Shown one piece after another: positions 2,919 to 43,711 of a stretch of 43,711 nt of DNA. Position numbers and translations under genes: made by a program. Origin of the DNA: a virus. Position 1 is the stretch's first letter, and each line of letters starts with the position of its first letter. The notes beneath the pieces are model-generated. The model was not told the origin of the DNA. It worked only from the letters and a program-made list of their open reading frames with translations, and ran no database searches. Location of the stretch: IMG/VR virus record IMGVR_UViG_3300045988_142367; one strand, given 5' to 3'.

Positions 2919-3269
2919 TCACGCCTCCGAGCCTGTCGGCCCAACGCTTCGATTAAAGCCTGGGCGTGGCCATGATCCGTCGTCAAGGATCTCCCAGTCC
3001 TCCAGAAGGATATCCGATTGCGACGCAAGCCATCCTGTCAGCACAGCCTTCCTTCCCGTCGAATCATGCGTGAACATGCAGATGGTGCCAAGCGCGGGAA
3101 TCTCGCCTCCGTTGCCTTCGGCAAGGCTTTTAAGGAGAGGATCCTTGCACCACTCAGCCTTGACGACAGCCTCTGGTTTAAGCCATAAAAACATTCCTTT
3201 TCCGTTCCAGCCCTTTCGGGCAACTCTCTTGCCCTGCTTCAGGGCCTCGATAGCTTTTCCAAAATCCAT
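2919..3269 (-). CDS. DUF2829-family protein (Tad2-like candidate anti-defence sponge)
   Basis: MDFGKAIEALKQGKRVARKGWNGKGMFLWL ... TGWLASQSDILLEDWEIL carries both hallmark blocks of DUF2829: ALKxGKxVxRxGW and (W)xxSQxDxLxxDWEI. Confidence 0.7.
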   Translation of the reverse strand: MDFGKAIEALKQGKRVARKGWNGKGMFLWLKPEAVVKAEWCKDPLLKSLAEGNGGEIPALGTICMFTHDSTGRKAVLTGWLASQSDILLEDWEILDDGSWPRPGFNRSVGPTGSEA

Positions 3270-26502: not shown

Positions 26503-28299
26503 TCAGTCCTTGTTTTTCCCGACCGCACGAGGATCCGTCGCCGAGGACGGCAGCATCGTCTTGCCGCTGGCCACGCCTCTGAGTTGCTTGGTCATCACAA
26601 GATACTTGAATGAGTCTGATGGGTTGGTGGACTCCGTAGGCAGCTGCTCCACCGGTAACTTCTCGCTTTTCTTATCCTTGAACACAACCCCGTTCCTGAC
26701 CACAGTCCTTGCCTTTTCCAATGACAGCTTCAGATGCTTGGCCGCATACGCGTCGATGCGAATCACCGGCAACCGTGGATTACGCTCACTCATTATCTCC
26801 TGCATAAATGAATATTCCTCCGGCTGCCCGATGTTGCCCTGGTTGATGGACATAAGCTGCACCGTCCACCCTGTACGGCGGCCGGATTCATCATATTCAA
26901 TAGCCTTCTTTAACTTGCCGACCTGATCCTCACCCACGGACTTGTAGGAGTTGCCTGCACGGTCATAGTACAGCATCAGGGTCTTGCGCCTCACAGGTGC
27001 GAAGAAGGCGCGGAACTTCTCTCCAAGGTCAGGGACATATTCAGGCGCAAGAGTGTAGAGGAACTTCACAACACGTAGGCACGAGCGTCCCTTCTCGGTG
27101 TCATTCTGGGCAATGGACATCGAGCACATATTCCCGAAATCCACTCCTGCGATGAGCGGTTTGTCCAGATCGAGATATTTCAGCACCCTGCAATCCTCCT
27201 GATCAAGCAGTCCGAATCCATCGTAGGCTTCCTCATCCGTGCCATCATAATAGAAGTGGCGTTCACTCAAGGAGGTGTAGAAGCGGTCGCCTGATTCCAG
27301 GGACGGGCGCATAGAGAGGATGGCCGTGTTCAGATCAGGAAGCTTACCCGAGATGGCATCCCCGAACCACTGCTCTGTGAGGATGTCCACATTGATGTAG
27401 GATGATGCCAGCATGAAGAAAGTCCTGGCTTCCTTACGCATCCTAAGTTCAGTCCATCGGGCTTTCCACTGTTCGGCCACACGGCATTTGCTGCGATAGA
27501 CGTTCAGGTCATCGGCACTGTGGGTTTTCAACCACTTGTCCTTGGCGGCGGCAGCCTCGTGCAGGCATTCGTTATAGACCAGGCCGGCTTTCAGCACAAG
27601 CACGATGGCCGGGATGTCCATATTGTGGGCATATTTCAGGATCCAGTCATATTCCCCGATGTGCGTGGTGTCCGGCATATCGGTGGTGAAACTGAATCCT
27701 CGGTAGAAGACACTGTGACCATATTCCTGCCTGTAGCCACGGACTGCCTTCAGCAGGTTGGAGATCTTGTCTTCCCGGAAATATTTCACCTCATCCCCGA
27801 AGCAGAACACGTAGGAGGCTCCGGCAAGGGTGGCCGGGCGGTCAAGGGAACCGAACCGGATGTTGGTGCCGGTGTAGAAGATGATCGTGCGTTTGTAGGA
27901 GACCAGTTTGTTGAAAGGTTTCCAGAAATGTGGTTTGAGCCAGTCCGGGAGACCAGCCTTTTCCGCATCTGTAAAGGTGGGCGGCTCCTTCTCGATGACA
28001 TAGTGGACTCCTTCACGCAGGCCTTTGCGCTCCAGTCCCTCCAGAACGGAAGGGAGGATGTTGGCGTTCAGGTTCGTGAACGTGTCGGCCACCCAGACCA
28101 CGGGCGCGCCAGGCATGTCATAGATGACATCCAGCAGTCTTTCGGCCTGGATGTCGGTTGTCTTGGCTCCGCCACGCCCCACGACATTGAGGTTCTGACA
28201 GGCGCCGGCCAGCGACACGATCTGGGCGAAAGGGTTCTGGTACTGGACGGAGGCGGCTTGTGTGGATTCAGGTTTAACTCTCTTCCTTTGCATCCTCAA
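26503..28299 (-). CDS. terL: Terminase large subunit
   Basis: Walker A-like VVGRGGAKTT, Walker B FCFGDEVKYF and the nuclease-domain acidic motif IAGVDFG. 598 aa. Confidence 0.85.
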   Translation of the reverse strand: MRMQRKRVKPESTQAASVQYQNPFAQIVSLAGACQNLNVVGRGGAKTTDIQAERLLDVIYDMPGAPVVWVADTFTNLNANILPSVLEGLERKGLREGVHYVIEKEPPTFTDAEKAGLPDWLKPHFWKPFNKLVSYKRTIIFYTGTNIRFGSLDRPATLAGASYVFCFGDEVKYFREDKISNLLKAVRGYRQEYGHSVFYRGFSFTTDMPDTTHIGEYDWILKYAHNMDIPAIVLVLKAGLVYNECLHEAAAAKDKWLKTHSADDLNVYRSKCRVAEQWKARWTELRMRKEARTFFMLASSYINVDILTEQWFGDAISGKLPDLNTAILSMRPSLESGDRFYTSLSERHFYYDGTDEEAYDGFGLLDQEDCRVLKYLDLDKPLIAGVDFGNMCSMSIAQNDTEKGRSCLRVVKFLYTLAPEYVPDLGEKFRAFFAPVRRKTLMLYYDRAGNSYKSVGEDQVGKLKKAIEYDESGRRTGWTVQLMSINQGNIGQPEEYSFMQEIMSERNPRLPVIRIDAYAAKHLKLSLEKARTVVRNGVVFKDKKSEKLPVEQLPTESTNPSDSFKYLVMTKQLRGVASGKTMLPSSATDPRAVGKNKD

Positions 28300-34399: not shown

Positions 34400-34622
34400 C
34401 AACTACACCAACTACACTTGAAGCTATGTTTGATTTTCAATGAGTTAACCAAAAACGAGGTGTAGTTGACCCTCGAAAATGTGTAGTTAGTGTAGTTGGA
34501 GTCACCGCAAGTGTAGTTGAATGTAGTTGGAGTGTAGTTCTTCAACTACACCGCAACTACACCTTATTTCGTTAATATTCATTCATTTACTTCAAGTGTA
34601 GTTAGTGTAGTTAGTGTAGTTG
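34400..34622. repeat. Iteron field: 13 copies of GTGTAGTT(G/A/C), in both orientations
   Basis: Plus-strand GTGTAGTT-type copies start at 34460, 34481, 34490, 34511, 34521 (ATGTAGTTG), 34532, 34596, 34605 and 34614. Reverse copies (CAACTACAC) start at 34400, 34409, 34543 and 34554. The pair at 34532..34551 forms the palindrome GTGTAGTTCTTCAACTACAC. Confidence 0.9.
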
Positions 34623-35036: not shown

Positions 35037-35441
35037 TCAGGCGAATTTGACAGACGATAGTTCTTGGCTGAAGTTCTTTATGCCCTCCTCGATTTTCTTC
35101 ACGGTCTTCGGGGAAGGATGCCTGTAGCCGCTGATGTAGTGGCTAAGAATGGTCTGGCTCACTCCGGTTACTTTCTCCAGTCCGGCAAGCGTTAGGATAA
35201 ACGCATATTGTTGGAGGAAAGAGGGAACGTCGTTGTAGAACTCAAAATCGACATCCGGACACTCTTTGCCCTCTTCCGCAAGCATCTGCTTTGCCTCCTC
35301 ATAAGAGTTGTAAAAGTCCTCTATGGCTTCTTTGGCTGTCTTGCCTTGACCGAGAAGTCCGAATGGAATCGCTTTGTTATACTCCATTGTTGCGTCGAAG
35401 GTTCCGTCCGAACCTCTCGCGATATAAACCTTTGCCTTCAT
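35037..35441 (-). CDS. hicB: HicB-family antitoxin with C-terminal HTH
   Basis: KVYIARGSDGTFDATMEYNKAIPFGLLGQGKTAKEAIEDFYNSYEEAKQMLAEEGKECP has the HicB/UPF0150 fold pattern. LTLAGLEKVTGVSQTILSHYISGYRHPSPKTVKKIEEGI is an XRE-type HTH. Confidence 0.7.
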   Translation of the reverse strand: MKAKVYIARGSDGTFDATMEYNKAIPFGLLGQGKTAKEAIEDFYNSYEEAKQMLAEEGKECPDVDFEFYNDVPSFLQQYAFILTLAGLEKVTGVSQTILSHYISGYRHPSPKTVKKIEEGIKNFSQELSSVKFA

Positions 35442-39000: not shown

Positions 39001-39265
39001 GTCCGGCAAGATGCTCCACCGCCTCGTAGAACGTCATCCCGCGCCTCTCCATTACAAAGCTGATGGCGTCGCCGGTACGTCCGCACCCGAAGCAGTGGTA
39101 CATATTCCTCGATGGTGTCACCACGAACGAAGGAGTCTTCTCCCCGTGGAAAGGGCAACAGCATTTGTAGTGGCTGCCTTCTCGCTTGAGCTCCACGCCC
39201 TCGTCCTGGATGATCGAGACGATGTCCCGCTCCTTGATCTGGTTTTTTACATAGTCGGGGATCAT
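36059..39265 (-). CDS. Primase/helicase: CHC2 zinc finger + Toprim + C-terminal P-loop NTPase (1068 aa)
   Basis: CCCPFHGEKTPSFVVTPSRNMYHCFGCGRTGD is the DnaG CHC2 finger. EGNLDVCRLHE...IIGDTDEAG is Toprim. FGPKGTGKSE is Walker A and VVHLDEY is Walker B. Confidence 0.85.
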   Translation of the reverse strand: MIPDYVKNQIKERDIVSIIQDEGVELKREGSHYKCCCPFHGEKTPSFVVTPSRNMYHCFGCGRTGDAISFVMERRGMTFYEAVEHLAGRLGIDYEKKEPTPEEKAAEFRRSQLMTVNKLASEWFIQRYKESPGAKEYVLKKRGIKAETAELFCIGYAPEKGGLKQYLTGLGWKEDVLLAAGLVKRNENTGQVYDSFRHRIMFPVFWTSGYIAGFSGRYIGDKPGVPKYLNTGETELYKKKGILFGWLQANMQIYATKQAYLVEGNLDVCRLHEIGVKNAVAPCGTALTQDQIDLLKSRAERVTIIGDTDEAGIEAVQKNAKLMTEAGLSVSVMELPPELGKDADEFFRTHQHEFDECNLQRTNDYIPWICKRWMEAAASQTEKAAVITEVCKLLAKVPDQSSADMYRETFTKTYKFGKIWNQEYFKAKNDQERAEAKEDGTKEMLQNYGFYVKNNCYYGASRSGNDVRWSNFTMTPILHIRDEKNARRIFTLRNVKMQEAVVKLNQSELVSFTDFKTRVETAGNYVWEATANELTSLKKFLYDGTPSADEIKQLGWQKKWGFYAWGNGGLDNGTFKPVDKYGIIDIKGQKFYLPGCALDTRDNTQGYQLARKFVYTEANTITLREYSEKLITVFGDNAKVALCFLFASLFKDVVTSVTTSFPILDLFGPKGTGKSELGHSLTSFFVTGNIAPNINNTTKAALAEAVAEVSNAVVHLDEYKNNLDLEKREFLKGIWDGAGRSRMNMDNDKRRETTAVDCGVVMSGQEMPTADIALFNRLVFLTFSKTTFSDQEKRNYENLKLIEKRGLTHLTNQLLQLRSKFQTDFRRVWDETLSDMNDRVRSYNVEDRTLRNWAILLAAYRALRTDIDVPFDSEEIFRLCCKGCVDQNQKTKQNNELSGFWEIVENLVASGQAYINIDYKLCAGDRPFAIKESDVPFEPKHGVRYIYLAFQRLSALYMKEGKDVNGKVIPRDSLKYYLEHSPEFIGTAKSMRFKLLENKTYVSSNPETGKSRVTTAMVFDYDALKVNYGIDLDISTDTLEIGDNRAAASTPPPVTEPAEAVDAELWEE

Positions 39266-39579
39266 AAGTCAAATAAATCTATGGCCTGGCCATTGTCCGC
39301 ACTCTCGAATATCCTTTTGCAGGAATCATCGTTCACTCTCTCGTTAGCCTGGTCTATCTCGAAAATCAGCTTCCTTGCGATGCCGATGTTCTGCTCAAGA
39401 TGGCATTTGCGCTGGATCTCCCAAGTCTGCATCCGTGCCGGTTCAAGCCCTGCGAACTCCATCAACTGGACTTCCCAAAGCTGCACGGCCATCTGGCACG
39501 CCCCGCGCAGTGCCGACCATTCCGGCCTGTCCATCTCGAACACCGAGATCAGGCCTCTTGAATCCTTGTCGGCGTACAT
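39262..39579 (-). CDS. Hypothetical early protein (105 aa)
   Basis: Packed ORF that overlaps the primase start by 4 nt. Confidence 0.5.
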   Translation of the reverse strand: MYADKDSRGLISVFEMDRPEWSALRGACQMAVQLWEVQLMEFAGLEPARMQTWEIQRKCHLEQNIGIARKLIFEIDQANERVNDDSCKRIFESADNGQAIDLFDL

Positions 39580-39822: not shown

Positions 39823-40773
39823 TCAGTCTAATAGTTTCAGCCCTTTGCTTATGATTTTTATTGCCTCCCTCTTAGAGTCCATACTGGCGTGGGTATAGAT
39901 ATCCAGAGTTGTGGATATATCCGAGTGCCCCAATATTCTCGACACGCTGGCGATGTCCGCTCCACCTCGGATCATATTTGTCGCGAACGAGTGTCTTAGG
40001 CCGTGGAATTTGATTATTCTTACCCCAGCTTTTTTGCAAAGGTTATTAAAGTGATGCCGAAAGGTTCTTGGCTCTGTGCACTTTTCTGTTCCGCTTGCGA
40101 TGTAAAAATTGTCAGGCATTATTCCCCTTACTTTCGCGAGACACTTTGCGAGCTGTGCCGTAATGGGGATGCATCGGTTGCTGGATCTGGTCTTTGGTAT
40201 CCCTTCCCGAACGTATGACTTTTTTTCGCCCGTGCTGCCGAATGTCTTTGGAATATACACTCTTGCAATTGTGCAATCTACAGTGATCGTTTTTTCTTTA
40301 GGGTCAACGTTCCTCCATTTCAGCCCGCAGACCTCCCCGATCCGTAGTCCGGTCATCATTGTGATCAGGATGGCGATTCCCTCGTAGGACGGATGCTCCA
40401 TGATGTATCCAGCAAGGCGTCTCAATTCTTCCGGAGAGTATGTCTCTAGTTCTTTCATTGCGCCTTCTTCGCGAGGATATTGTAAATTGAATTTTGGCAG
40501 GTAGAGATCTAAGCCGTCCAAAAACCATCCCATTATCATTTTGACAAGGACTATAATGTCCTTTATGGATTTTGTGCTAAGTCCGGTTTGATGGAGCCGA
40601 CCTATCATATCCTGAAGATGTCTGGAGCGTATGTTTTTGATTTCCATATTCGCAATCTCATCATTTTTGATATGATTCCTGTACATCAAGTCATACGCTG
40701 CCAGCGTCGAGTCTCTGACCATATACTCCTTGTTTTTGAACCAATGCTCGTATTCTTCGTTAATTGTGCTCAT
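39823..40773 (-). CDS. Second tyrosine recombinase (XerC/D-like site-specific recombinase)
   Basis: Catalytic residues can be read: GLRIGEVCGLKW (Arg), HGLRHSFAT (His-x-x-Arg) and LGHSDISTTLDIYTH (His, Tyr). The gene is visibly AT-richer than its flanks. Confidence 0.85.
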   Translation of the reverse strand: MSTINEEYEHWFKNKEYMVRDSTLAAYDLMYRNHIKNDEIANMEIKNIRSRHLQDMIGRLHQTGLSTKSIKDIIVLVKMIMGWFLDGLDLYLPKFNLQYPREEGAMKELETYSPEELRRLAGYIMEHPSYEGIAILITMMTGLRIGEVCGLKWRNVDPKEKTITVDCTIARVYIPKTFGSTGEKKSYVREGIPKTRSSNRCIPITAQLAKCLAKVRGIMPDNFYIASGTEKCTEPRTFRHHFNNLCKKAGVRIIKFHGLRHSFATNMIRGGADIASVSRILGHSDISTTLDIYTHASMDSKREAIKIISKGLKLLD

Positions 40774-40775
40774 AA

Positions 40776-41336
40776 CTATGATAATTTGAATATTTCCGAA
40801 AATCCAAGCGCGTCATTCCGCTTGTTGATCAGCCGGTAATGCGCTATAACCCGCTGCTCCAGAACATCCCCGTGATAGACATCCCCAACCATTCCCCTGA
40901 CCGACAAGTTGAAAAGGAGTATCGGTATCGATCTGTCCGAAAGTTCCCAACACTCGACCGGATTGTCGTTCGGGTAATAGTCGAACGGAATCCGCTTTCG
41001 GCATAGTTCCCACCATTTGGCTATGATCATCGAGCCGTTTCCGGCGGTCGGCTCCAGAATCCCTTGTCTGCGTGCACCGTTGTCGGTGATCATCGCAGCC
41101 AGCTGCGAAGCGGCCGCCGGAGTAAAGTCCTGCTTTTTCTGACCGCGCTCGCTTAGCTCCGCTTCGTAGATGGGTTGGAACCATTCCCTGTCCATCGCGA
41201 AGTCATTCGCCTCAAGCATTGCCCTGTAGAACTTCTGTCTGTTGACTGGATCCCCGAACAGAACCGTCATCAAAGCCTCCGGAATCAGCCTCGTGTCATT
41301 TATTCCAAGTGTTGTCAAAAGAAACTCTTTAGTCAT
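40776..41336 (-). CDS. N6-adenine methyltransferase-like protein lacking the catalytic motif IV (186 aa)
   Basis: QDFTP is motif X and ILEPTAGNGSMI is the SAM-binding motif I. ECWELSDRSIPILLFNL...GDVYHGDVL is the motif II/III region. No (N/D/S)PP(Y/F/W) motif occurs anywhere in the ORF. Confidence 0.6.
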   Translation of the reverse strand: MTKEFLLTTLGINDTRLIPEALMTVLFGDPVNRQKFYRAMLEANDFAMDREWFQPIYEAELSERGQKKQDFTPAAASQLAAMITDNGARRQGILEPTAGNGSMIIAKWWELCRKRIPFDYYPNDNPVECWELSDRSIPILLFNLSVRGMVGDVYHGDVLEQRVIAHYRLINKRNDALGFSEIFKLS

Positions 41337-41400
41337 TGAAAATCAACAAAATAAATTGAAAATATCTTGAAAAATAATTGTGTAATTCAAAATAAATGCG

Positions 41401-41412: not shown

Positions 41413-41604
41413 GCGGTTCAGGGAGAACCGCGAAAGAGGAATCTGAAACGCTTGAAAGGGAGTAAGAAAAACAGCCAAACTTCTGAAAATATGAGAGTCG
41501 AAGTTCTTAAAATCAGAATTTGGAAAATAGTGATAACACTTGTAGAGGTTACACTTTAGTTTTCCGAGGGAGGGGATCCGAAACATCCCCTCTCGTTTGG
41601 CTGT
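41413..41604. promoter_or_regulatory. Structured leader / overlap region between face-to-face promoters
   Basis: Hairpins: GCGGTTC-AGGGA-GAACCGC (41413..41431), GTG(A)TAAC-N10-GTTACAC (41530..41554) and CGAG(GG)AGGGGAT-CCGAAAC-ATCCCCTCTCG (41565..41595). There is also a 10-bp long-range pairing ACAGCCAAAC (41471..41480) / GTTTGGCTGT (41595..41604). Confidence 0.5.
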
Positions 41605-41610
41605 CTTCCG

Positions 41611-41618
41611 CAAATTTA
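41611..41618 (-). promoter_or_regulatory. Candidate -7 box TAAATTTG (leftward, early operon), with TTTG about 19 nt upstream
   Basis: Plus strand CAAATTTA is minus strand TAAATTTG. Minus-strand TTTG occurs at 41641..41638. The predicted start near 41604 coincides with the first base of the long-range helix. Confidence 0.45.
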
Positions 41619-41629
41619 ACACATTTTGT

Positions 41630-41848
41630 ATGCAAAACAAAAATCTGTCATCTTCACAAACTCCTTCCGAGTCCGCGTCCTGGGGCGGTGCCCGTTCCGG
41701 TGCCGGCCGCAAGTCCAAGCCCCACGGAAAGTCCTACACCTTCCAGTCCACCCCCGAGGTTGACGCGTTCCTCTCTTCCTATCAGGGCAACAAGACTGAG
41801 TTCATCAACCGAGCTATCCTGACCCTTGCGGGCAAATCCTCCGACTGA
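41630..41848 (+). CDS. Small ribbon-helix-helix DNA-binding protein (72 aa)
   Basis: MQNKNLSSSQTPSESASWGGARSGAGRKSKPHGKSYTFQSTPEVDAFLSSYQGNKTEFINRAILTLAG has a basic GGxRxGxGRK arm followed by a beta-strand and two helices (RHH layout). Confidence 0.6.
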   Translation: MQNKNLSSSQTPSESASWGGARSGAGRKSKPHGKSYTFQSTPEVDAFLSSYQGNKTEFINRAILTLAGKSSD

Positions 41849-41887: not shown

Positions 41888-41923
41888 AATTCACCGCAGT
41901 GTCTGGCCGCGGTGAATTTTTGT
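41888..41923 (+). terminator. Intrinsic terminator of the RHH gene
   Basis: AATTCACCGC-N11-GCGGTGAATT (10-bp stem) followed by TTTTGT, 40 nt after the stop at 41848. Confidence 0.7.
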
Positions 41924-42066
41924 ATCCGCTGCACTCTGTACCTCTTGCCTTCTCCTGTCTTCGTCACCGCTGGTGATTTGATTATCCGGTTGACCGTCTT
42001 CCGCGCCAACCTGTTCTGAATCTTTCGTGCTATTGAACTCATAATATTACTGATTAACCAATTTCG

Positions 42067-42196
42067 CCCCCGGGAACGGAATCGAACCGCTCACATCGCG
42101 CGACGCTTTCGGAGCAGACCCCGCCCTCCTGGGCTTTACATCCTACGCAAGTCTGCCTACGTGCCGGCAGGGACCCATATCCTGCCCTTTCCGGGG
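42067..42196 (-). ncRNA. tRNA-shaped RNA module 2 (~130 nt) with a 62-nt branched insert in place of the anticodon loop
   Basis: Minus strand: acceptor CCCCGG/CCGGGG; D-like stem GGCAGG/CCTGCC with loop ATATGGGTC; anticodon-type stem CACGT/ATGTG; T-arm AGCGG-TTCGATT-CCGTT (T-loop at 42080..42086). No CCA and no canonical anticodon loop. Confidence 0.55.
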
Positions 42197-42306
42197 AATT
42201 GCCGGTCTTTCCCGGCTGTCAAACTTACTTAACTCAACACTATCTAAACATACGGTCTCTCACCGCCCGACGCTCCTTAACGCCGTAATTGAATTGATAA
42301 AACTGA

Positions 42307-42416
42307 GATCCCGCGCCGGACTCGAACCGGTAATGACTAAAACTTATGATTTTCGACAAAAAAGGTTATTTGTGCCTACTCGCTTTTAAGTCGCTCCCCA
42401 CGGAGCATCGCGGAAT
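42307..42416 (-). ncRNA. tRNA-shaped RNA module 1 (~110 nt) with a ~44-nt insert in place of the anticodon loop
   Basis: Minus strand: 7-bp acceptor ATTCCGC/GCGGGAT; D-arm TGCT-CCGTGGGG-AGCG; extended anticodon-type helix CT(T)AAAA/TTTTAG; 5-nt variable region; T-arm ACCGG-TTCGAGT-CCGGC (T-loop at 42320..42326). No CCA is encoded. Confidence 0.55.
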
Positions 42417-42486
42417 TGTTCACGCCTCACGGCGCTACGTGATGGCGGCTTCCTAGGGCCGTTGAATATAGATTTGCCAAGACCTA

Positions 42487-42576
42487 TTACTTATCGTCAT
42501 CCTCCTTGAACGCCCACCAGTACAGCGCAACCACACCGACCAGCATCACTCCTTCCACTATGTAATGAACCAACAT
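42487..42576 (-). CDS. Tiny hydrophobic peptide (29 aa)
   Basis: MLVHYIVEGVMLVGVVALYWWAFKEDDDK. Its ATG lies 1 nt after the stop of 42578..42874. It is below the ORF-track cut-off. Confidence 0.3.
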   Translation of the reverse strand: MLVHYIVEGVMLVGVVALYWWAFKEDDDK

Positions 42577-42888: not shown

Positions 42889-43317
42889 TCAATTGATACC
42901 ACGCTTTGCGCTATGCGTCACCACCATATCTTTCAGCATCCACGCGTCCGGATTGCTTTTCGGACTGAACAGCCACGCCATCGCAGCCTCAAAAGCCTTG
43001 CGCCGGCCGCTAATCTTCGGATCCAATCTCGGCATTCCCCCAAGATGTACGCTATCCCCAGCGTCCCCAGGTGCCACCACGCGAACTCCGCCTTCCCCGC
43101 AACCGCCTGCACAGCGTTCACCATCAACGCCACCGCGACCACCACCGCAAGCACCCTCCAGATGCCCACCGTTGTCCTTTCCATTCGATCTTCTACGCTC
43201 ATAACTCATTTGTTTTCTGAATATTTTATTGTTATCTTCGCTCATTTGATGCTGTATTGCATTTGTATTGCGTTTGTGTTTACACTGCAAAGGTAAGATA
43301 ATTATCTTAATTAACAA
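42889..43317 (-). CDS. Leftward early ORF, frame B (C-terminal part looks genuine: ...KAFEAAMAWLFSPKSNPDAWMLKDMVVTHSAKRGIN)
   Basis: The N-terminal two thirds are Gly/Arg-rich, low-complexity sequence, while the C-terminal ~50 aa look protein-like. See also the frame A ORF 42933..43202. Confidence 0.35.
   Translation of the reverse strand: MLIKIIILPLQCKHKRNTNAIQHQMSEDNNKIFRKQMSYERRRSNGKDNGGHLEGACGGGRGGVDGERCAGGCGEGGVRVVAPGDAGDSVHLGGMPRLDPKISGRRKAFEAAMAWLFSPKSNPDAWMLKDMVVTHSAKRGIN
42933..43202 (-). CDS. Leftward early ORF, frame A (two-TM N-terminal part looks genuine)
   Basis: MSVEDRMERTTVGIWRVLAVVVAVALMVNAVQAVAGKAEFAWWHLGTLGIAYILG has two clean TM helices. The remaining 34 aa are Arg-rich nonsense-like sequence. 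The two frames cross at a G5 run (43037..43041). Confidence 0.35.
   Translation of the reverse strand: MSVEDRMERTTVGIWRVLAVVVAVALMVNAVQAVAGKAEFAWWHLGTLGIAYILGECRDWIRRLAAGARLLRLRWRGCSVRKAIRTRGC
43288..43308. promoter_or_regulatory. Leftward -7 box TACCTTTG (43288..43295, minus) abutting the 14-bp perfect palindrome AAGATAATTATCTT (43295..43308): candidate switch operator
   Basis: Plus strand CAAAGGTA is minus strand TACCTTTG. The palindrome was verified base by base. It lies in the 135-bp divergent region between the CI-like gene and the leftward operon. Confidence 0.45.
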
Positions 43318-43337
43318 GATAAAAATAGAGAAAATTT

Positions 43338-43711
43338 ATGACGGAAAAAGAGAAGATTAAGCAATATCTTGAACGCAAGGGTATTAGCAAAAATAGTTTT
43401 TATCAGAAGACTGGGTTGTCGATGGGGTTTCTTGACAGCGGCAAAAGCTTGGGTGTCGATAAACTCAAGACAATTATCGAGAATTATCCAGATCTTTCCC
43501 TTGATTGGCTAGTCTTCGATAAGGAGAACGTGATGTCGAACAACACGATTAACAATCCTGGTGTCGTGTTGAATGGCCAAAATAATGGTCATATCGACCA
43601 GCGCCAATATTATTCCGACAGCCCCGATGTCCTCAGAGCCCAGATCGAGCTCCTCGACGAACGCATCAAGGAGAAGGACGCCCAGATCAAGGAGAAGGAC
43701 GCCCAGATCAA
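43338..43711 (+). CDS. CI-like/XRE-type HTH repressor, N-terminal part (ORF runs off the window end and continues at 3..107)
   Basis: ATG at 43338. MTEKEKIKQYLERKGISKNSFYQKTGLSMGFLDSGKSLGVDKLKTIIENYPDLSLDWLVF matches the phage CI-repressor type HTH common in Bacteroidales. There is no stop before 43711, and the frame is continuous through the 55-nt overlap. Confidence 0.75.
   Translation, partial: MTEKEKIKQYLERKGISKNSFYQKTGLSMGFLDSGKSLGVDKLKTIIENYPDLSLDWLVFDKENVMSNNTINNPGVVLNGQNNGHIDQRQYYSDSPDVLRAQIELLDERIKEKDAQIKEKDAQI
43657..43711. repeat. 55-nt terminal direct repeat (identical to 1..55); circularisation overlap of the assembly
   Basis: Exact match by eye: ACGAACGCATCAAGGAGAAGGACGCCCAGATCAAGGAGAAGGACGCCCAGATCAA occurs at both ends. 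Confidence 0.9.

Follow-up and report, generated by a model that had tools for sequence, protein, structure and literature searches.

What does a temperate phage encode in a 444-nt stretch of its early operon that holds no protein gene and whose minus strand appears to fold twice into the shape of a tRNA? The stretch lies in a closed-circle viral sequence of 43,711 nt from a temperate gut (Bacteroidales) phage, referred to here in its full length as the window. The locus had been predicted to be free of open reading frames (ORFs), and our analysis agreed: no ORF longer than 39 amino acids was found between 42042 and 42487, where it is bordered by the start of an 86-aa ORF at 42042 and by the stop of a 36-aa ORF at 42487. 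Both RNA genes sit in the early operon, which runs from the repressor and early-promoter region to the replication genes; they are located between coding blocks of this operon and upstream of its primase gene. A 104-aa protein encoded upstream of the locus gave a confident AlphaFold model (pLDDT 88) with no PDB fold match and no assignment to a Pfam or PHROG family. Among GenBank phages, none had DNA similarity to the window. The closest cultured relatives are Porphyromonas gingivalis phages, whose primase is 30% identical and whose genomes show no equivalent gap at the corresponding place.

The two tRNA-shaped RNAs were found on the minus strand at the predicted sites, module 1 at 42308–42416 (109 nt, 8/4 frame) and module 2 at 42067–42197 (131 nt, 7/6 frame); all features of the locus described below are on this strand. 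Using a crude frame detector that combined the T loop T[TC]CGANT with a fully paired acceptor and a D stem with a GG loop, we counted two tRNA-like frames in the window versus 0.025 per shuffled window. Both modules share an acceptor/T-arm stack, a D arm with G18G19 and a T loop of the type UUCRAnY, all backed by covariation. As predicted, they are not ordinary tRNAs or tmRNAs. ARAGORN called 0 tRNAs and 0 tmRNAs in the window, nothing in Rfam matched at the gathering score and nothing relevant at E ≤ 10, and the canonical tRNA model RF00005 (≥29 bits) likewise gave no match in the window even at E ≤ 10. Both modules lack a U33-type anticodon loop, G1 and an encoded CCA, and neither contains a conserved 5-bp anticodon stem with a 7-nt loop (U33, purine 37). 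The further claim that the RNAs belong to no recognizable family stood as far as Rfam is concerned and was overstated at the level of architecture, as the module 1 frame is the known 8/4 architecture of allo-tRNAs and tRNA-Sec-like RNAs.

Could these nonetheless be genuine decoding tRNAs, with an anticodon arm that is interrupted by an intron or unconventional, as in suppressor tRNAs or allo-tRNAs? Translation-active 8/4 tRNAs exist, phages included (PMC5389517). Furthermore, in one relative (L041) ARAGORN calls the module 1 variant a 94-nt ‘tRNA-Gly(acc)’. This call, however, rests on a mismatched anticodon stem. The intron mode of ARAGORN made no call at normal thresholds and, at relaxed ones, called only module 1, placing an intron at position 29. 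Excising any single contiguous segment fails to produce a 5-bp stem with a U33-type 7-nt loop, and to our knowledge bacteria have no splicing endonuclease for such tRNA introns. In addition, module 1 inserts are wholly different even between close relatives, and the long ORFs of the window are intact under the standard code, so that no recoding is needed. We give a decoding function only a very slim chance.

Comparative analysis established a conserved tRNA-like structure, purifying selection and modularity. Relatives of the locus were collected from at least 40 contigs of viral, metagenomic or Bacteroidales/Rikenellaceae prophage origin. The RNA parts are 87–100% identical where the flanking genes are 56–63% identical, and the module 2 frame remains 87–94% identical across diverged lineages; the D loop AUAUGGGUC, the T loops and the module 2 acceptor are near-invariant. 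When loci were retrieved through the upstream protein, modules were present in every one that covered the spot. Their content varied from module 2 only (L013 and L016) or the module 1 type only (L300) to both or to four modules, and some relatives carry protein-gene insertions precisely at the module 1 3′ end. The modules are separable because genes are inserted between them in relatives. They are independent cassettes and not one 444-nt RNA. Arrays in relatives mix the 8/4 Sec-like frame, the 7/6 frame and a tmRNA-TLD-like module. In L045, the module 1 type aligned end to end with the Rfam tRNA-Sec model at 29.7 bits (gathering score 47), and a module 3 type (3072–3130), absent from the window, matched both tmRNA ends at 23.8 bits (gathering score 47).

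The predicted stems covaried in general (99% of alignment cells paired), with boundaries that the comparative data redrew in several places. In module 1, the acceptor (42409–42416 with 42308–42315) comprises 8 bp, AUUCCGCG/CGCGGGAU, in place of the proposed 7-bp ATTCCGC/GCGGGAT; the D arm (42393–42406) is GCUCC-GUGG-GGAGC rather than TGCT/AGCG, and the T arm (42316–42330) has a 4-bp stem CCGG/CCGG rather than ACCGG/CCGGC. This fold was the same in 11 of 11 variants, with 99.3% of cells paired and 8 of 17 pairs changed on both sides. Within the acceptor, pairs 5–37 and 7–35 were double-changed, and the eighth pair was invariant. The anticodon arm is replaced by a 62-nt, A/U-rich, fast-evolving insert (42331–42392) that spans the distance from D to T arm; an insert of ~44 nt closed by CU(U)AAAA/UUUUAG had been suggested, and this closing stem is not conserved. 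At least seven different inserts occur within the one conserved frame, and no fold common to them was found. The heptamer AUCAUAA in the insert, considered as a CAU anticodon loop, was ruled out, its flanking stem not being conserved.

In module 2, the acceptor (42191–42197 with 42067–42073) was lengthened from the 6-bp CCCCGG/CCGGGG to 7 bp, UCCCCGG/CCGGGG(G/A), and the T stem (T arm, 42074–42092) from AGCGG/CCGTT to the 6-bp GAGCGG/CCGUUC; the 6-bp D stem (D arm, 42166–42186) was retained as first drawn. Here, 99.4% of cells were paired and 7 of 24 pairs showed double changes, which fell in the D stem, the T stem and helix P-a. The latter (GGCAGAC/GUCUGCU), also correctly anticipated, encloses UUGCGUAGGAUGUAAA and a hairpin GCCC-AGGA-GGGC (42123–42134) and with them forms the insert (42113–42157). 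Relatives swap it to GCGGCC/GGCCGC, GGCGG/CCGCC or GGCGC/GCGCC, and it covaries at all five inner pairs, with the 3′ strand picked by complementarity. By contrast with these helices, the proposed ‘anticodon-type’ stem CACGU/AUGUG is absent or mismatched in relatives, and the self-complementary palindrome UCGCGCGA is not kept. The 3′ segment CCGAAAGCGUCGCGCGAUGU (42093–42112), at the position of a variable region, contains the conserved pieces GAAAGC and CGAUGU; no supported pairing was found for it. RNAalifold proposed an H-type pseudoknot UUGCGU/GCGCGA in module 2, which we rejected as broken in 3 of 17 sequences. The distance from D to T arm is 73 nt in the window. L045 and L301 contain a minimal module 2 of 84 nt, from which the entire insert is missing and in which the frame is kept.

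Two readings that deny the locus a function as RNA are to be weighed against this pattern. If the modules were the decaying remains of an earlier phage tRNA gene cluster, the lack of an anticodon loop and of CCA would be expected, and a leader hairpin of module 2 (H5, below) is the same as that preceding real phage tRNAs. However, compensatory changes preserve every stem, the RNA parts evolve far more slowly than the neighboring genes and every relative retrieved through the neighboring protein retains the locus, making decay highly improbable. The alternative of a DNA-level site, an attP or recombination target that copies parts of a host tRNA or tmRNA gene, draws on the tyrosine recombinase gene (39823–40773) located 1.3 kb downstream and on the fact that tRNA, tmRNA and selC genes are classic integration sites. 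Yet the 5′ and 3′ halves of each frame are both present; in prophages on contigs of 234–335 kb, phage genes colinear with the window adjoin the locus on either side, which places it inside the prophage; the window itself is a closed circle, with its larger integrase gene (931–2400) far from the locus; and the covariation indicates selection on base pairing. The original prediction that the modules are not att copies of host tRNA 3′ ends was therefore upheld, and an attachment site is the reading to which we assign the least probability of all. A standard tRNA or tmRNA call, host tRNA 3′ ends at prophage junctions or missing covariation had been named as results that would count against the original tRNA-mimic proposal, and none of them was encountered.

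The regions around the modules are structured as well. A leader motif GUCUUGGCAAA (42473–42483), directly 3′ of the stop codon of a small membrane-peptide ORF, is kept in all module 1-bearing relatives and found again ahead of a different tRNA-like module in L045. It is followed by hairpin H0 (42447–42460, GGC-CCUAGGAA-GCC), whose stem covaries (GGUC/GACC, AGGU/ACCU) and whose CCYAGGA-type loop is seen again within the module 2 insert and in the leader hairpins that relatives carry. Leader hairpin H1 (42417–42438, GUAG-CGCC-GUGA-GGCG-UGAACA) ends 1 nt before module 1 and is a motif specific to this phage family; its loop is always GNRA (GUGA, GCGA or GGGA), and its stem covaries (GCGCC/GGCGU, ACGCU/GGCGU, GCGGC/GCCGC). 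Between the modules lie H3 (42268–42285, CGGCGUU-AAGG-AGCGUCG), which covaries, and H4 (42253–42265, CGGU-GAGAG-ACCG). Together these two are 89–97% identical across lineages whose flanking genes are ~60% identical, and they remain upstream of module 2 even where genes are inserted after module 1. A variable spacer (42222–42252), measuring 9 to ~70 nt and unrelated in sequence among relatives, separates H4 from leader hairpin H5 (42200–42221, UGACA-GCCGG-GAAAGA-CCGGC-A), which ends 3 nt before module 2. The two spacer hairpins in the original prediction, GCGCC-GTGA-GGCGT with its GNRA loop and GCCGG-GAAAGA-CCGGC, were thus real and covary.

Such richness in purine-rich and GNRA loops throughout the locus (GUGA, GAAAGA, GAGAG, AAGG and AGGA), together with conserved spacers, could suggest one large multi-domain RNA in the manner of ROOL or GOLLD, with the tRNA-like parts as domains of a 440-nt fold. 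This conflicts with the protein-coding genes between modules in several relatives, the occurrence of single modules and the elastic H4–H5 spacer. Moreover, the minimum free energy fold of the whole locus recovered the module 1 cloverleaf at an unexceptional energy (z = −1.4), and no Rfam match to ROOL or GOLLD was found in the window. We consider a single large RNA very unlikely.

H5 extends well beyond this phage family, within which it is 100% conserved. Its exact 19-mer was detected in at least 120 other IMG/VR contigs, representing 102 distinct contexts, and its range stretches from Bacteroidales to enterobacterial, Pseudomonas, Stenotrophomonas and cyanobacterial phages. A canonical tRNA begins 4–9 nt downstream in 27 of 118 copies; the distance to the following gene is 3–9 nt for module 2 and for genuine tRNAs of unrelated phages alike. 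The stem covaries, with 90 of 120 variants fully paired versus 20 expected. H5 also occurs ahead of mRNAs and short terminated RNAs in other phages, and cultured phages of E. coli, Klebsiella, Acinetobacter and Stenotrophomonas carry it, annotated in none of them; in phage mEp390 it lies at 27450–27471; the sequence was not found in the literature searched. As for a partner protein, no family was common to more than 11 of 117 loci, the largest being that of a cI-like repressor gene just upstream. Several identities were rejected. A hammerhead was ruled out by swapped G8/A9, an HDV-like ribozyme by the lack of an Rfam HDV-type match, which holds for H3 and H4 as well, and of anything conserved upstream of H5, and a three-way junction by the absence of flanking helices. 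A sigma-70 −35 box was dismissed because position −2 is mostly C and, in tRNA contexts, the start site would fall inside the tRNA.

The placement of these hairpins bears on a reading in which the locus acts in cis. Frames and leader hairpins would only direct RNase P and RNase Z to the early polycistronic transcript, whose cleavage would split the upstream small genes from the replication genes and leave hairpin-protected ends, with the excised RNAs as by-products. The modules do lie between coding blocks of one operon, and H1 and H5 end 1–3 nt before the predicted RNase P sites, where they would become 3′-terminal hairpins of the upstream fragment. A single module seems enough in relatives with only the module 1 type or only module 2, and the presence of H5 before mRNAs and short terminated RNAs fits as well. 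RNase P, however, needs only a minimal acceptor/T-arm helix, yet D arms, elbows and inserts are conserved and covary; arrays with up to four different modules are hard to justify in this way, and the near-invariant module 2 sequence exceeds the need. Transcript punctuation as the sole function therefore seems rather improbable to us.

What, then, might the RNAs do? The best explanation, advanced tentatively and rated somewhat short of probable, is that they are tRNA-scaffolded RNAs, processed by RNase P and RNase Z, with a module 1 insert that is antisense to phage start codons. The locus would comprise two separate genes for non-decoding tRNA-shaped RNAs, each with its own leader hairpin upstream, and the tRNA frame, that is, the acceptor/T-arm stack and the D/T-loop elbow, would be the scaffold on which their processing and stability depend. 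Cleavage by RNase P at the 5′ end and trimming of the 3′ end by RNase Z or exonucleases, followed by CCA addition, would give stable RNAs of ~109 and ~131 nt that display the replacement of the anticodon loop. The ‘CAU’ boxes of module 1 might then pair with the start-codon regions of the primase gene, a methyltransferase-like gene and a divergent HTH gene and damp their translation, with a logic as in the RNase P-processed immunity RNAs CI (P4) and C4 (P1/P7). Of these steps, we infer transcription and processing by tRNA enzymes; antisense control of phage start codons, read from complementarity in the sequence, is only a lead. For a tRNA substrate, A1 and U1 as 5′ nucleotides and a C following the acceptor are atypical, which counts against processing.

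The lead comes from a set of candidate anti-start-codon boxes in the module 1 insert (42332–42350). Box AUCAUAAGUU (42341–42350) can form 10 bp with the primase start region (39261–39270), UCAUAAGUUUU (42339–42349) 11 bp with the start region of the HTH gene on the plus strand (43331–43341) and UUUUAGUCAUU (42332–42342) 11 bp with that of the methyltransferase-like gene (41327–41337). Sliding-window RNAduplex energies for the insert gave no usable signal, and the statistics come instead from contiguous-helix counts compared with shuffles. The 11-bp maximum of the window insert was reached in 8 of 200 shuffles, and pairing with at least two start regions at ≥10 bp had P ~0.03, a modest value in A/U-rich sequence. 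In L027 and L020, the best insert complement in the whole locus is the primase start region, with 15 bp including one G–U pair, a length that 0 of 20,000 insert shuffles attained on that start region. In all these comparisons, the target was chosen after the fact. The primase start region is also complementary over 13 bp in L009 and L010 and 11 bp in L031; the relatives with primase pairing are related by descent, and their pairings are not independent events. Other insert types pair with other start regions belonging to this regulatory/replication module: the L315 insert pairs over 11 bp with that of a repressor-like gene, and the type-4 box AUACGUAGCC of L313 over 10 bp with a gene overlapping the primase start. 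Several inserts of the module 1 type, those of L040, L049, L300 and module 1′ of L313, showed no such start-region pairing, with some of these loci too short to include the targets. Half of the locus is left without a mechanism in this scheme, because complementarity of the module 2 insert to start regions never exceeds 7 bp. With its conserved G+C-rich helix–hairpin and no detectable mRNA target, this insert is probably a protein- or RNA-binding surface.

Mimicry offers another account, in which the RNAs are decoys or sponges for host factors that recognize the tRNA body or 3′ end. Having kept the acceptor/T/D body and lacking an anticodon loop that could be cleaved, the processed RNAs would titrate or inhibit such factors. 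Proposed targets are tRNA-cutting or tRNA-modifying defense toxins, nucleotidyltransferase or pyrophosphokinase toxins and, for the tmRNA-like module, SmpB. Conservation is indeed strongest in elements of the tRNA body, the mix of 8/4 Sec-like, 7/6 and tmRNA-TLD-like frames in relatives resembles a panel of mimics, module 2 of L045 lost its insert and kept the frame, and the early-operon position suits an anti-defense role. The conservation of the D loop and elbow, which exceeds the need of a mere scaffold, fits mimicry at least as well. On the other hand, the window has no tRNA-targeting defense or tRNA-repair gene linked to the locus; phages are known to counter anticodon nucleases with real tRNAs whose loops are altered, as opposed to loop-less mimics (PMC10264068, PMC11464382); and the lineage-specific conserved inserts and the start-codon complementarity are left unexplained. 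On balance, we see decoys as an unlikely option, albeit one to be taken seriously.

Scaffolded RNAs and H5 may also be viewed jointly. In this wider and speculative picture, about which we are doubtful, phages would use natural tRNA scaffolds, and H5 would be a pan-phage RNA signal. Cloverleaf frames would hijack RNase P, RNase Z and CCA addition to produce stable small RNAs, the swapped-in ‘anticodon arm’ serving as an antisense regulator of replication or lysogeny genes or as a ligand-binding element, and arrays would consist of interchangeable cassettes including tRNA-Sec-like and tmRNA-like frames. H5 (CUGACA-stem-GAAAGA-stem-CA) would be a 5′ marker for tRNAs, tRNA-like RNAs and certain mRNAs, and a conserved putative host factor would recognize it.

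Phage tRNA genes are now being re-read as weapons against tRNA-targeting defenses. Here, conserved phage RNAs keep the tRNA body and have given up decoding, so that the tRNA shape is used otherwise; the RNAs are most likely cut out by tRNA-processing enzymes and act as regulators or decoys. If mimicry holds, the arrays would be a panel of inhibitors for host factors that bind tRNA, tRNA-Sec or tmRNA. Neither the family of tRNA look-alikes, with at least four module types, nor the H5 hairpin, present in hundreds of phage contigs, is represented in Rfam, and both are directly testable in culturable systems.

Among known RNAs, the allo-tRNAs share features with module 1, namely an acceptor branch of 12 bp divided 8/4, a long D stem capped by a 4-nt loop and a location in tandem with further irregular tRNA-like genes. 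Irregular tRNAs are known to occur in polycistrons, and some irregular 8/4 RNAs were suggested to be regulatory rather than translational (PMC5389517). Module 2, however, is 7/6. Allo-tRNAs moreover retain an ordinary anticodon stem-loop together with a long variable arm, and several decode in E. coli, whereas the anticodon arm is replaced here by 33–62 nt of unrelated sequence; their hosts are Acidobacteria or Clostridia rather than those of Bacteroidales phages. Module 2 resembles bacterial tRNA-Sec in its 13-bp acceptor/T stack and 6-bp D stem, but the modules of the window do not match RF01852 at 47 bits and lack a UCA anticodon. Likewise, the window contains no match to tmRNA (RF00023), no tag reading frame and no G3–U70 pair.

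Bacterial Y RNAs such as YrlA, which also occur in phages, mimic tRNA and have both a T arm and a D arm. In YrlA, the tRNA-like domain is circularly permuted, the ends lie in a Ro-binding stem and rsr adjoins the gene; here, the order of arms is canonical, Rfam gave no YrlA match, and no Ro/TROVE or Rtc domain was found among the window proteins scanned. For H5, a parallel exists in theta ribozymes, minimal HDV-like elements that adjoin tRNAs, mostly in gut Bacteroidota phages whose tRNAs have no encoded CCA (PMC10879173): both are short conserved RNA elements flanking phage tRNA genes. Theta ribozymes lie 3′ of the tRNA and adopt the nested double-pseudoknot HDV fold with a conserved L3 and a catalytic C, while H5 is a 22-nt hairpin standing alone on the 5′ side of the tRNA, lacking conserved upstream L3/P1 elements and flanking helices.

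The logic of the favored explanation is that of CI of P4 and C4 of P1/P7, antisense immunity RNAs excised by RNase P. These are sense-encoded in the leader of the operon that they control, and their loops pair with sites in the same operon; the P4 operon controlled by CI carries a primase gene, and Rfam contains a C4 family. The leader position fits here, with RNAs upstream of the primase gene in one operon and an insert complementary to the primase start over 10–15 bp, strongly so in L027 and L020 and modestly in the window. The differences are that the frame is a full cloverleaf, that no similarity to these RNAs was found in sequence or Rfam, including the C4 model, and that the pairing, proposed from sequence alone, involves start codons and not seqA/seqC-type sites. 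If the scaffold and antisense reading is true, Bacteroidales phages would have independently built an RNase P-dependent RNA immunity of the P4/P1 type.

Lastly, both modules have the same architecture as an artificial design, the engineered ‘tRNA scaffold’ for recombinant RNA, in which Ponchon and Dardel reportedly replaced the anticodon stem-loop with the RNA of interest. There, the tRNA body secures maturation through RNase P and RNase Z and shields the RNA from nucleases. We know of no described natural counterpart of the tRNA scaffold in such use, and, if the scaffold reading is true, nature would have anticipated the laboratory tool.

The 444-nt locus at 42043–42486 (minus strand) contained no ORF longer than 39 aa, as the original prediction had claimed, and its two tRNA-shaped units lay where they had been placed, with module 1 at 42416–42308 and module 2 at 42197–42067. 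A crude cloverleaf detector returned exactly these two frames in the window, compared to 0.025 per shuffled window. ARAGORN made zero calls, in agreement with the claim that neither is an ordinary tRNA; module 1 was called solely at 80% stringency with introns allowed, and the intron then fell at a non-canonical place. Rfam 15 gave no match at gathering thresholds, and a search of the 901-nt surroundings of the locus gave no relevant one at E ≤ 10.

Relatives (L-numbered loci on viral, metagenomic and prophage contigs) were collected by exact-pattern scans of IMG/VR using T-arm/acceptor segments, which identified module 1 in eight loci and module 2 in 19, while a genome scan revealed prophage copies in Bacteroidales MAGs. 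A second retrieval, designed against retrieval bias, started from the upstream 104-aa protein, which forms only ~30 clusters in the database of proteins; here, tRNA-like modules followed the same three small genes in every contig covering the spot. The 104-aa protein gave a confident structure model, yet no fold match. When the window was compared to lineages with flanking genes at 56–63% DNA identity, the RNA elements were far better kept than these genes: 100% for H5 (the leader hairpin of module 2), 89–97% for the spacer hairpins H3–H4, 87–94% for the module 2 frame and 91% for the 3′ half of module 1. An attachment site, considered as an alternative, was rejected because the locus is internal to prophages on 234-kb and 335-kb contigs, with window-colinear phage DNA on both sides. 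In other lysogens, the host junction lies ~2 kb upstream of the early operon.

Comparison with relatives upheld the tRNA-like frames and corrected several of the originally assigned arms. Module 1 comprises an 8-bp acceptor, a 2-nt link, a 5-bp D stem with a GUGG loop, a 62-nt insert replacing the anticodon arm and a 4-bp T stem with a UUCGAGU loop. Its frame is the 8/4 one known from allo-tRNAs, with a resemblance to tRNA-Sec; L045, a relative whose insert is short, aligned end to end with the Rfam tRNA-Sec model, scoring 29.7 bits where the gathering threshold is 47. In module 2, the acceptor has 7 bp (U1 faces G or A at 72) and is followed by AAA, a D stem of 6 bp with loop AUAUGGGUC, an insert, a conserved segment of 20 nt and a T stem of 6 bp; the result is a 13-bp stack. 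Its 84-nt versions in L045 and L301 lack helix P-a of the insert. The CACGU/AUGUG stem initially drawn in module 2 is missing from L040 and mismatched in L012, L031 and L049, and the palindrome UCGCGCGA is lost in relatives.

Base-pair covariation, proposed earlier as a check, was found in both module types, as assessed by pair counts on concatenated stems in a structure-aware alignment that is biased towards that structure. For the module 1 type, 99.3% of cells were paired and both sides changed in eight of 17 pairs (two acceptor pairs, for instance, went from C-G to U-A, and D stem GCUCC/GGAGC became UCCCC/GGGGA), while sliding the registers by 1–3 columns reduced pairing to 37–52%. The module 2 type had 99.4% of cells paired; double changes affected the D stem (A-U to G-C or U-A), the T stem (A-U to G-C; the next pair G-U, G-C or A-U) and all five inner pairs of P-a, for which the 3′ strand was chosen by complementarity.

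The distribution of modules 1 and 2 indicates that they are separate cassettes. Module 2 occurs alone in L012, L013, L016, L017, L019 and L036, and the module 1 type alone in L300 and L307, where it leads into the downstream junction seen after module 2 in other relatives. Because the modules occur as separate cassettes, a single 444-nt RNA seems unlikely. In L022, L033, L038–L040, L045–L051 and L315–L320, a small AP2-like gene is inserted precisely at the 3′ end of module 1, and L040 and L049 have a second gene at that point too; this arrangement resembles a free-standing, homing-type insertion beside a tRNA-like gene. The AP2-like gene (~60–80 aa, MRKGCIYSEWQNNLG...WVAEI.IRGKRYRFRSTNYANA..WLEKMSETTV; an AP2-type DNA-binding domain by eye) is absent from the window. 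Where it is present, the module 1 insert carries UUACUCAUU, complementary to the start of that gene, AUGAGUAA.

Arrays with two further module types were detected in L045/L046, L301 and L304, and relatives contain up to four different tRNA-like modules (L045 2565–3307; L301; L304/L309). One short type matches both ends of the tmRNA model (23.8 bits), with acceptor GGGAGCGG/CCGCUCC in one lineage and GGGGAUGG/CCAUCCCC in another; it looks like a ~60-nt mini tmRNA-TLD with a 10-nt hairpin in place of the mRNA-like domain. The other, a second 8/4 type, has a 6-bp D stem, an ACGG loop and an acceptor of GCCCCGGG, GCCCGGAG or AUGCUGAG, paired in every case, and keeps the box GAAUACGUAGC in its insert.

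Each module is preceded by a leader hairpin, 1–3 nt from the acceptor. H1, before module 1, is restricted to this phage family; its loop stays GNRA and the hairpin covaries. The exact 19-mer GACAGCCGGGAAAGACCGG of H5 (window 42200–42221, minus strand) was present in at least 120 further IMG/VR contigs, representing 102 different contexts among the matches listed; the loci listed comprise L058, L060, L062 and ~115 more. Among the matches listed, conservation is limited to ~23 nt (cUGACA-GCCGG-GAAAGA-CCGGC-A) with nothing kept outside, a canonical tRNA (Leu, Pro, Ser, Gly, Gln, Trp, Asn or Thr) lies 4–9 nt downstream in 27 of 118 copies, and the remaining copies precede mRNA leaders, with a ribosome-binding site and ATG, or short terminated RNAs, with a short terminator hairpin. 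At 11 of 117 loci among these matches, H5 sits just downstream of a cI-like repressor gene; no neighboring protein family was common across phages at the 117 loci. Variants with a different stem were fully paired in 90 of 120 cases versus 20 expected, which argues that the stem is under selection as a helix, with loop and 5′ flank fixed. Of these variants, a tRNA followed 7 of the 90 that were paired and 0 of the 30 that were not. Unannotated copies also occur in the cultured phages Acinetobacter Alexa, Stenotrophomonas Pokken, Cronobacter ESP2949-1, Klebsiella P7641, Pseudomonas Medea1 and lambdoid coliphage mEp390 (NC_019721, 27450–27471, downstream of a cI-like gene), the last at the position expected for nutL from lambda. 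H5 had no Rfam match and its sequence was not found in the literature searched; hammerhead, HDV-like and junction ribozymes were rejected. H5 is a pan-phage, unannotated 22-nt motif, a separate one and possibly new, and its position shows that module 2 is laid out like the cassettes of genuine phage tRNA genes.

The window is a closed circular 43.7-kb genome (55-nt terminal overlap; relatives read across the junction), the terminal direct repeat (1–55 = 43657–43711) marking the circular assembly. We assign it to a temperate siphovirus-like phage on the basis of its tape-measure protein, endolysin, holin, integrase (931–2400, 489 aa), BACON-domain tail proteins and DnaG-type primase; prophage copies reside in genomes of Bacteroidales and Rikenellaceae. 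The scanned window proteins include no reverse transcriptase, Ro/TROVE protein, RtcB, RNA ligase or CCA-adding enzyme. The early operon runs on the minus strand, divergent from an HTH gene (+ strand, 141 aa) that starts at 43338, crosses the junction into the window start and carries a tandem KEKDAQI repeat coded by a 21-nt DNA repeat. In order of transcription, it starts with two ~100-aa genes and a membrane peptide of 36 aa whose stop is at 42487. The 444-nt locus comes next, then an ORF of 86 aa that starts at 42042, a methyltransferase-like gene, a tyrosine recombinase of 316 aa, a 105-aa gene and, finally, the primase. Two long overlapping minus-strand frames (42889–43317 and 42933–43202) occupy the first early gene, both conserved at the protein level, and gene callers vary in their choice (L038 MSYERRR..., L045 MSVEERMERTT...). 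On the opposite (+) strand, an 83-aa ORF (41597–41848) overlaps the end of the 86-aa ORF; its C-terminal half is ribbon-helix-helix-like by eye, and L041, L042 and L045 also have this ORF in conserved form. A hairpin with a T-run lies at 41888–41923. The methyltransferase-like fragment (186 aa, SAM motif EPTAGNG) and adjoining recombinase (39823–41336) form a variable cassette, absent from L027 and L031 and replaced by a 370-aa recombinase and an Eco57I-like gene in L045; L051 and L316–L318 instead have an N6_Mtase gene upstream of module 1. The cassette is possibly a methylase module that is mobile or phase-variable. An iteron-like array at 34401–34621 (octamer AACTACAC, eight copies on the minus and four on the plus strand), located in a 260-nt A+T-rich, ORF-poor stretch between an HTH gene (35037–35441) and the next gene, may serve as a replication origin or regulator-binding array.

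The module 1 insert is A/U-rich, lacks a common fold and differs wholly between lineages. Within it, the stretch conserved best, GAAAAUCAUAAGUU, shows complementarity to the start-codon region of the primase gene, which lies farther along this operon. This pairing spans 15 bp with one G-U in L027 and L020, where neither strand of the entire locus offers a better complement and 0 of 20,000 insert shuffles reached 15 bp on the primase start region; it spans 13 bp in L009 and L010, 11 bp in L031 and 10 bp in the window (42341–42350 with 39261–39270). The window insert additionally pairs over 11 bp with the start regions of the methyltransferase-like gene (42332–42342 with 41327–41337) and the divergent HTH gene (42339–42349 with 43331–43341). 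Window statistics are modest: the 11-bp maximum was reached in eight of 200 shuffles (47 start regions), and P is ~0.03 for at least two start regions with at least 10 bp. Other insert types find complements at other start regions within this regulatory/replication block: the L315 insert pairs over 11 bp with that of the repressor-like gene, and the AUACGUAGCC box conserved in type-4 modules pairs over 10 bp with that of the 105-aa gene overlapping the primase start. Some lineages showed no insert/start-region pairing, and none was found for the module 2 insert. The reverse complement of 42346–42366 within the window's module 1 insert (AUGAUUUUCGACAAAAAAGG) is closely similar to the sense type-4 insert of L301/L304 (AUGAUUUUGACAAA(A)GG), which could reflect an inverted segment or a sense/antisense pair.

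P4 CI and P1/P7 C4 RNAs are antisense RNAs that repress the operon from whose leader RNase P excises them, in P4 the primase operon. The locus resembles this layout, with RNAs upstream of the primase in its operon and a possible pairing of the module 1 insert with the primase start region. On this basis, we rank first, albeit tentatively, a tRNA-scaffolded RNA in which module 1 would act as an antisense regulator by pairing of its insert with start regions. The original reading as tRNA mimics held for shape; a decoy function of the tRNA body ranks second and is rather doubtful, and we consider an antisense or scaffold role at least as likely. Excision from the transcript by tRNA enzymes would be common to the scaffold/antisense and decoy readings and to pure transcript punctuation, which ranks third and seems improbable.

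The nearest described RNAs are 8/4 allo-tRNAs and metagenomic ‘polycistrons of irregular tRNA sequences’, which include phage-borne 8/4 tRNAs and for some of which a regulatory role was suggested (PMC5389517); these keep their anticodon arms, whereas the modules of the window lack them. Theta ribozymes, short elements attached to tRNAs of Bacteroidota gut phages (PMC10879173), lie 3′ of the tRNA and adopt an HDV-like fold, whereas H5 is a hairpin located 5′. The family fails tested defining features of tRNA, tmRNA, tRNA-Sec, YrlA, GOLLD/ROOL and C4, and we rate it as a family of non-decoding, tRNA-derived phage RNAs.
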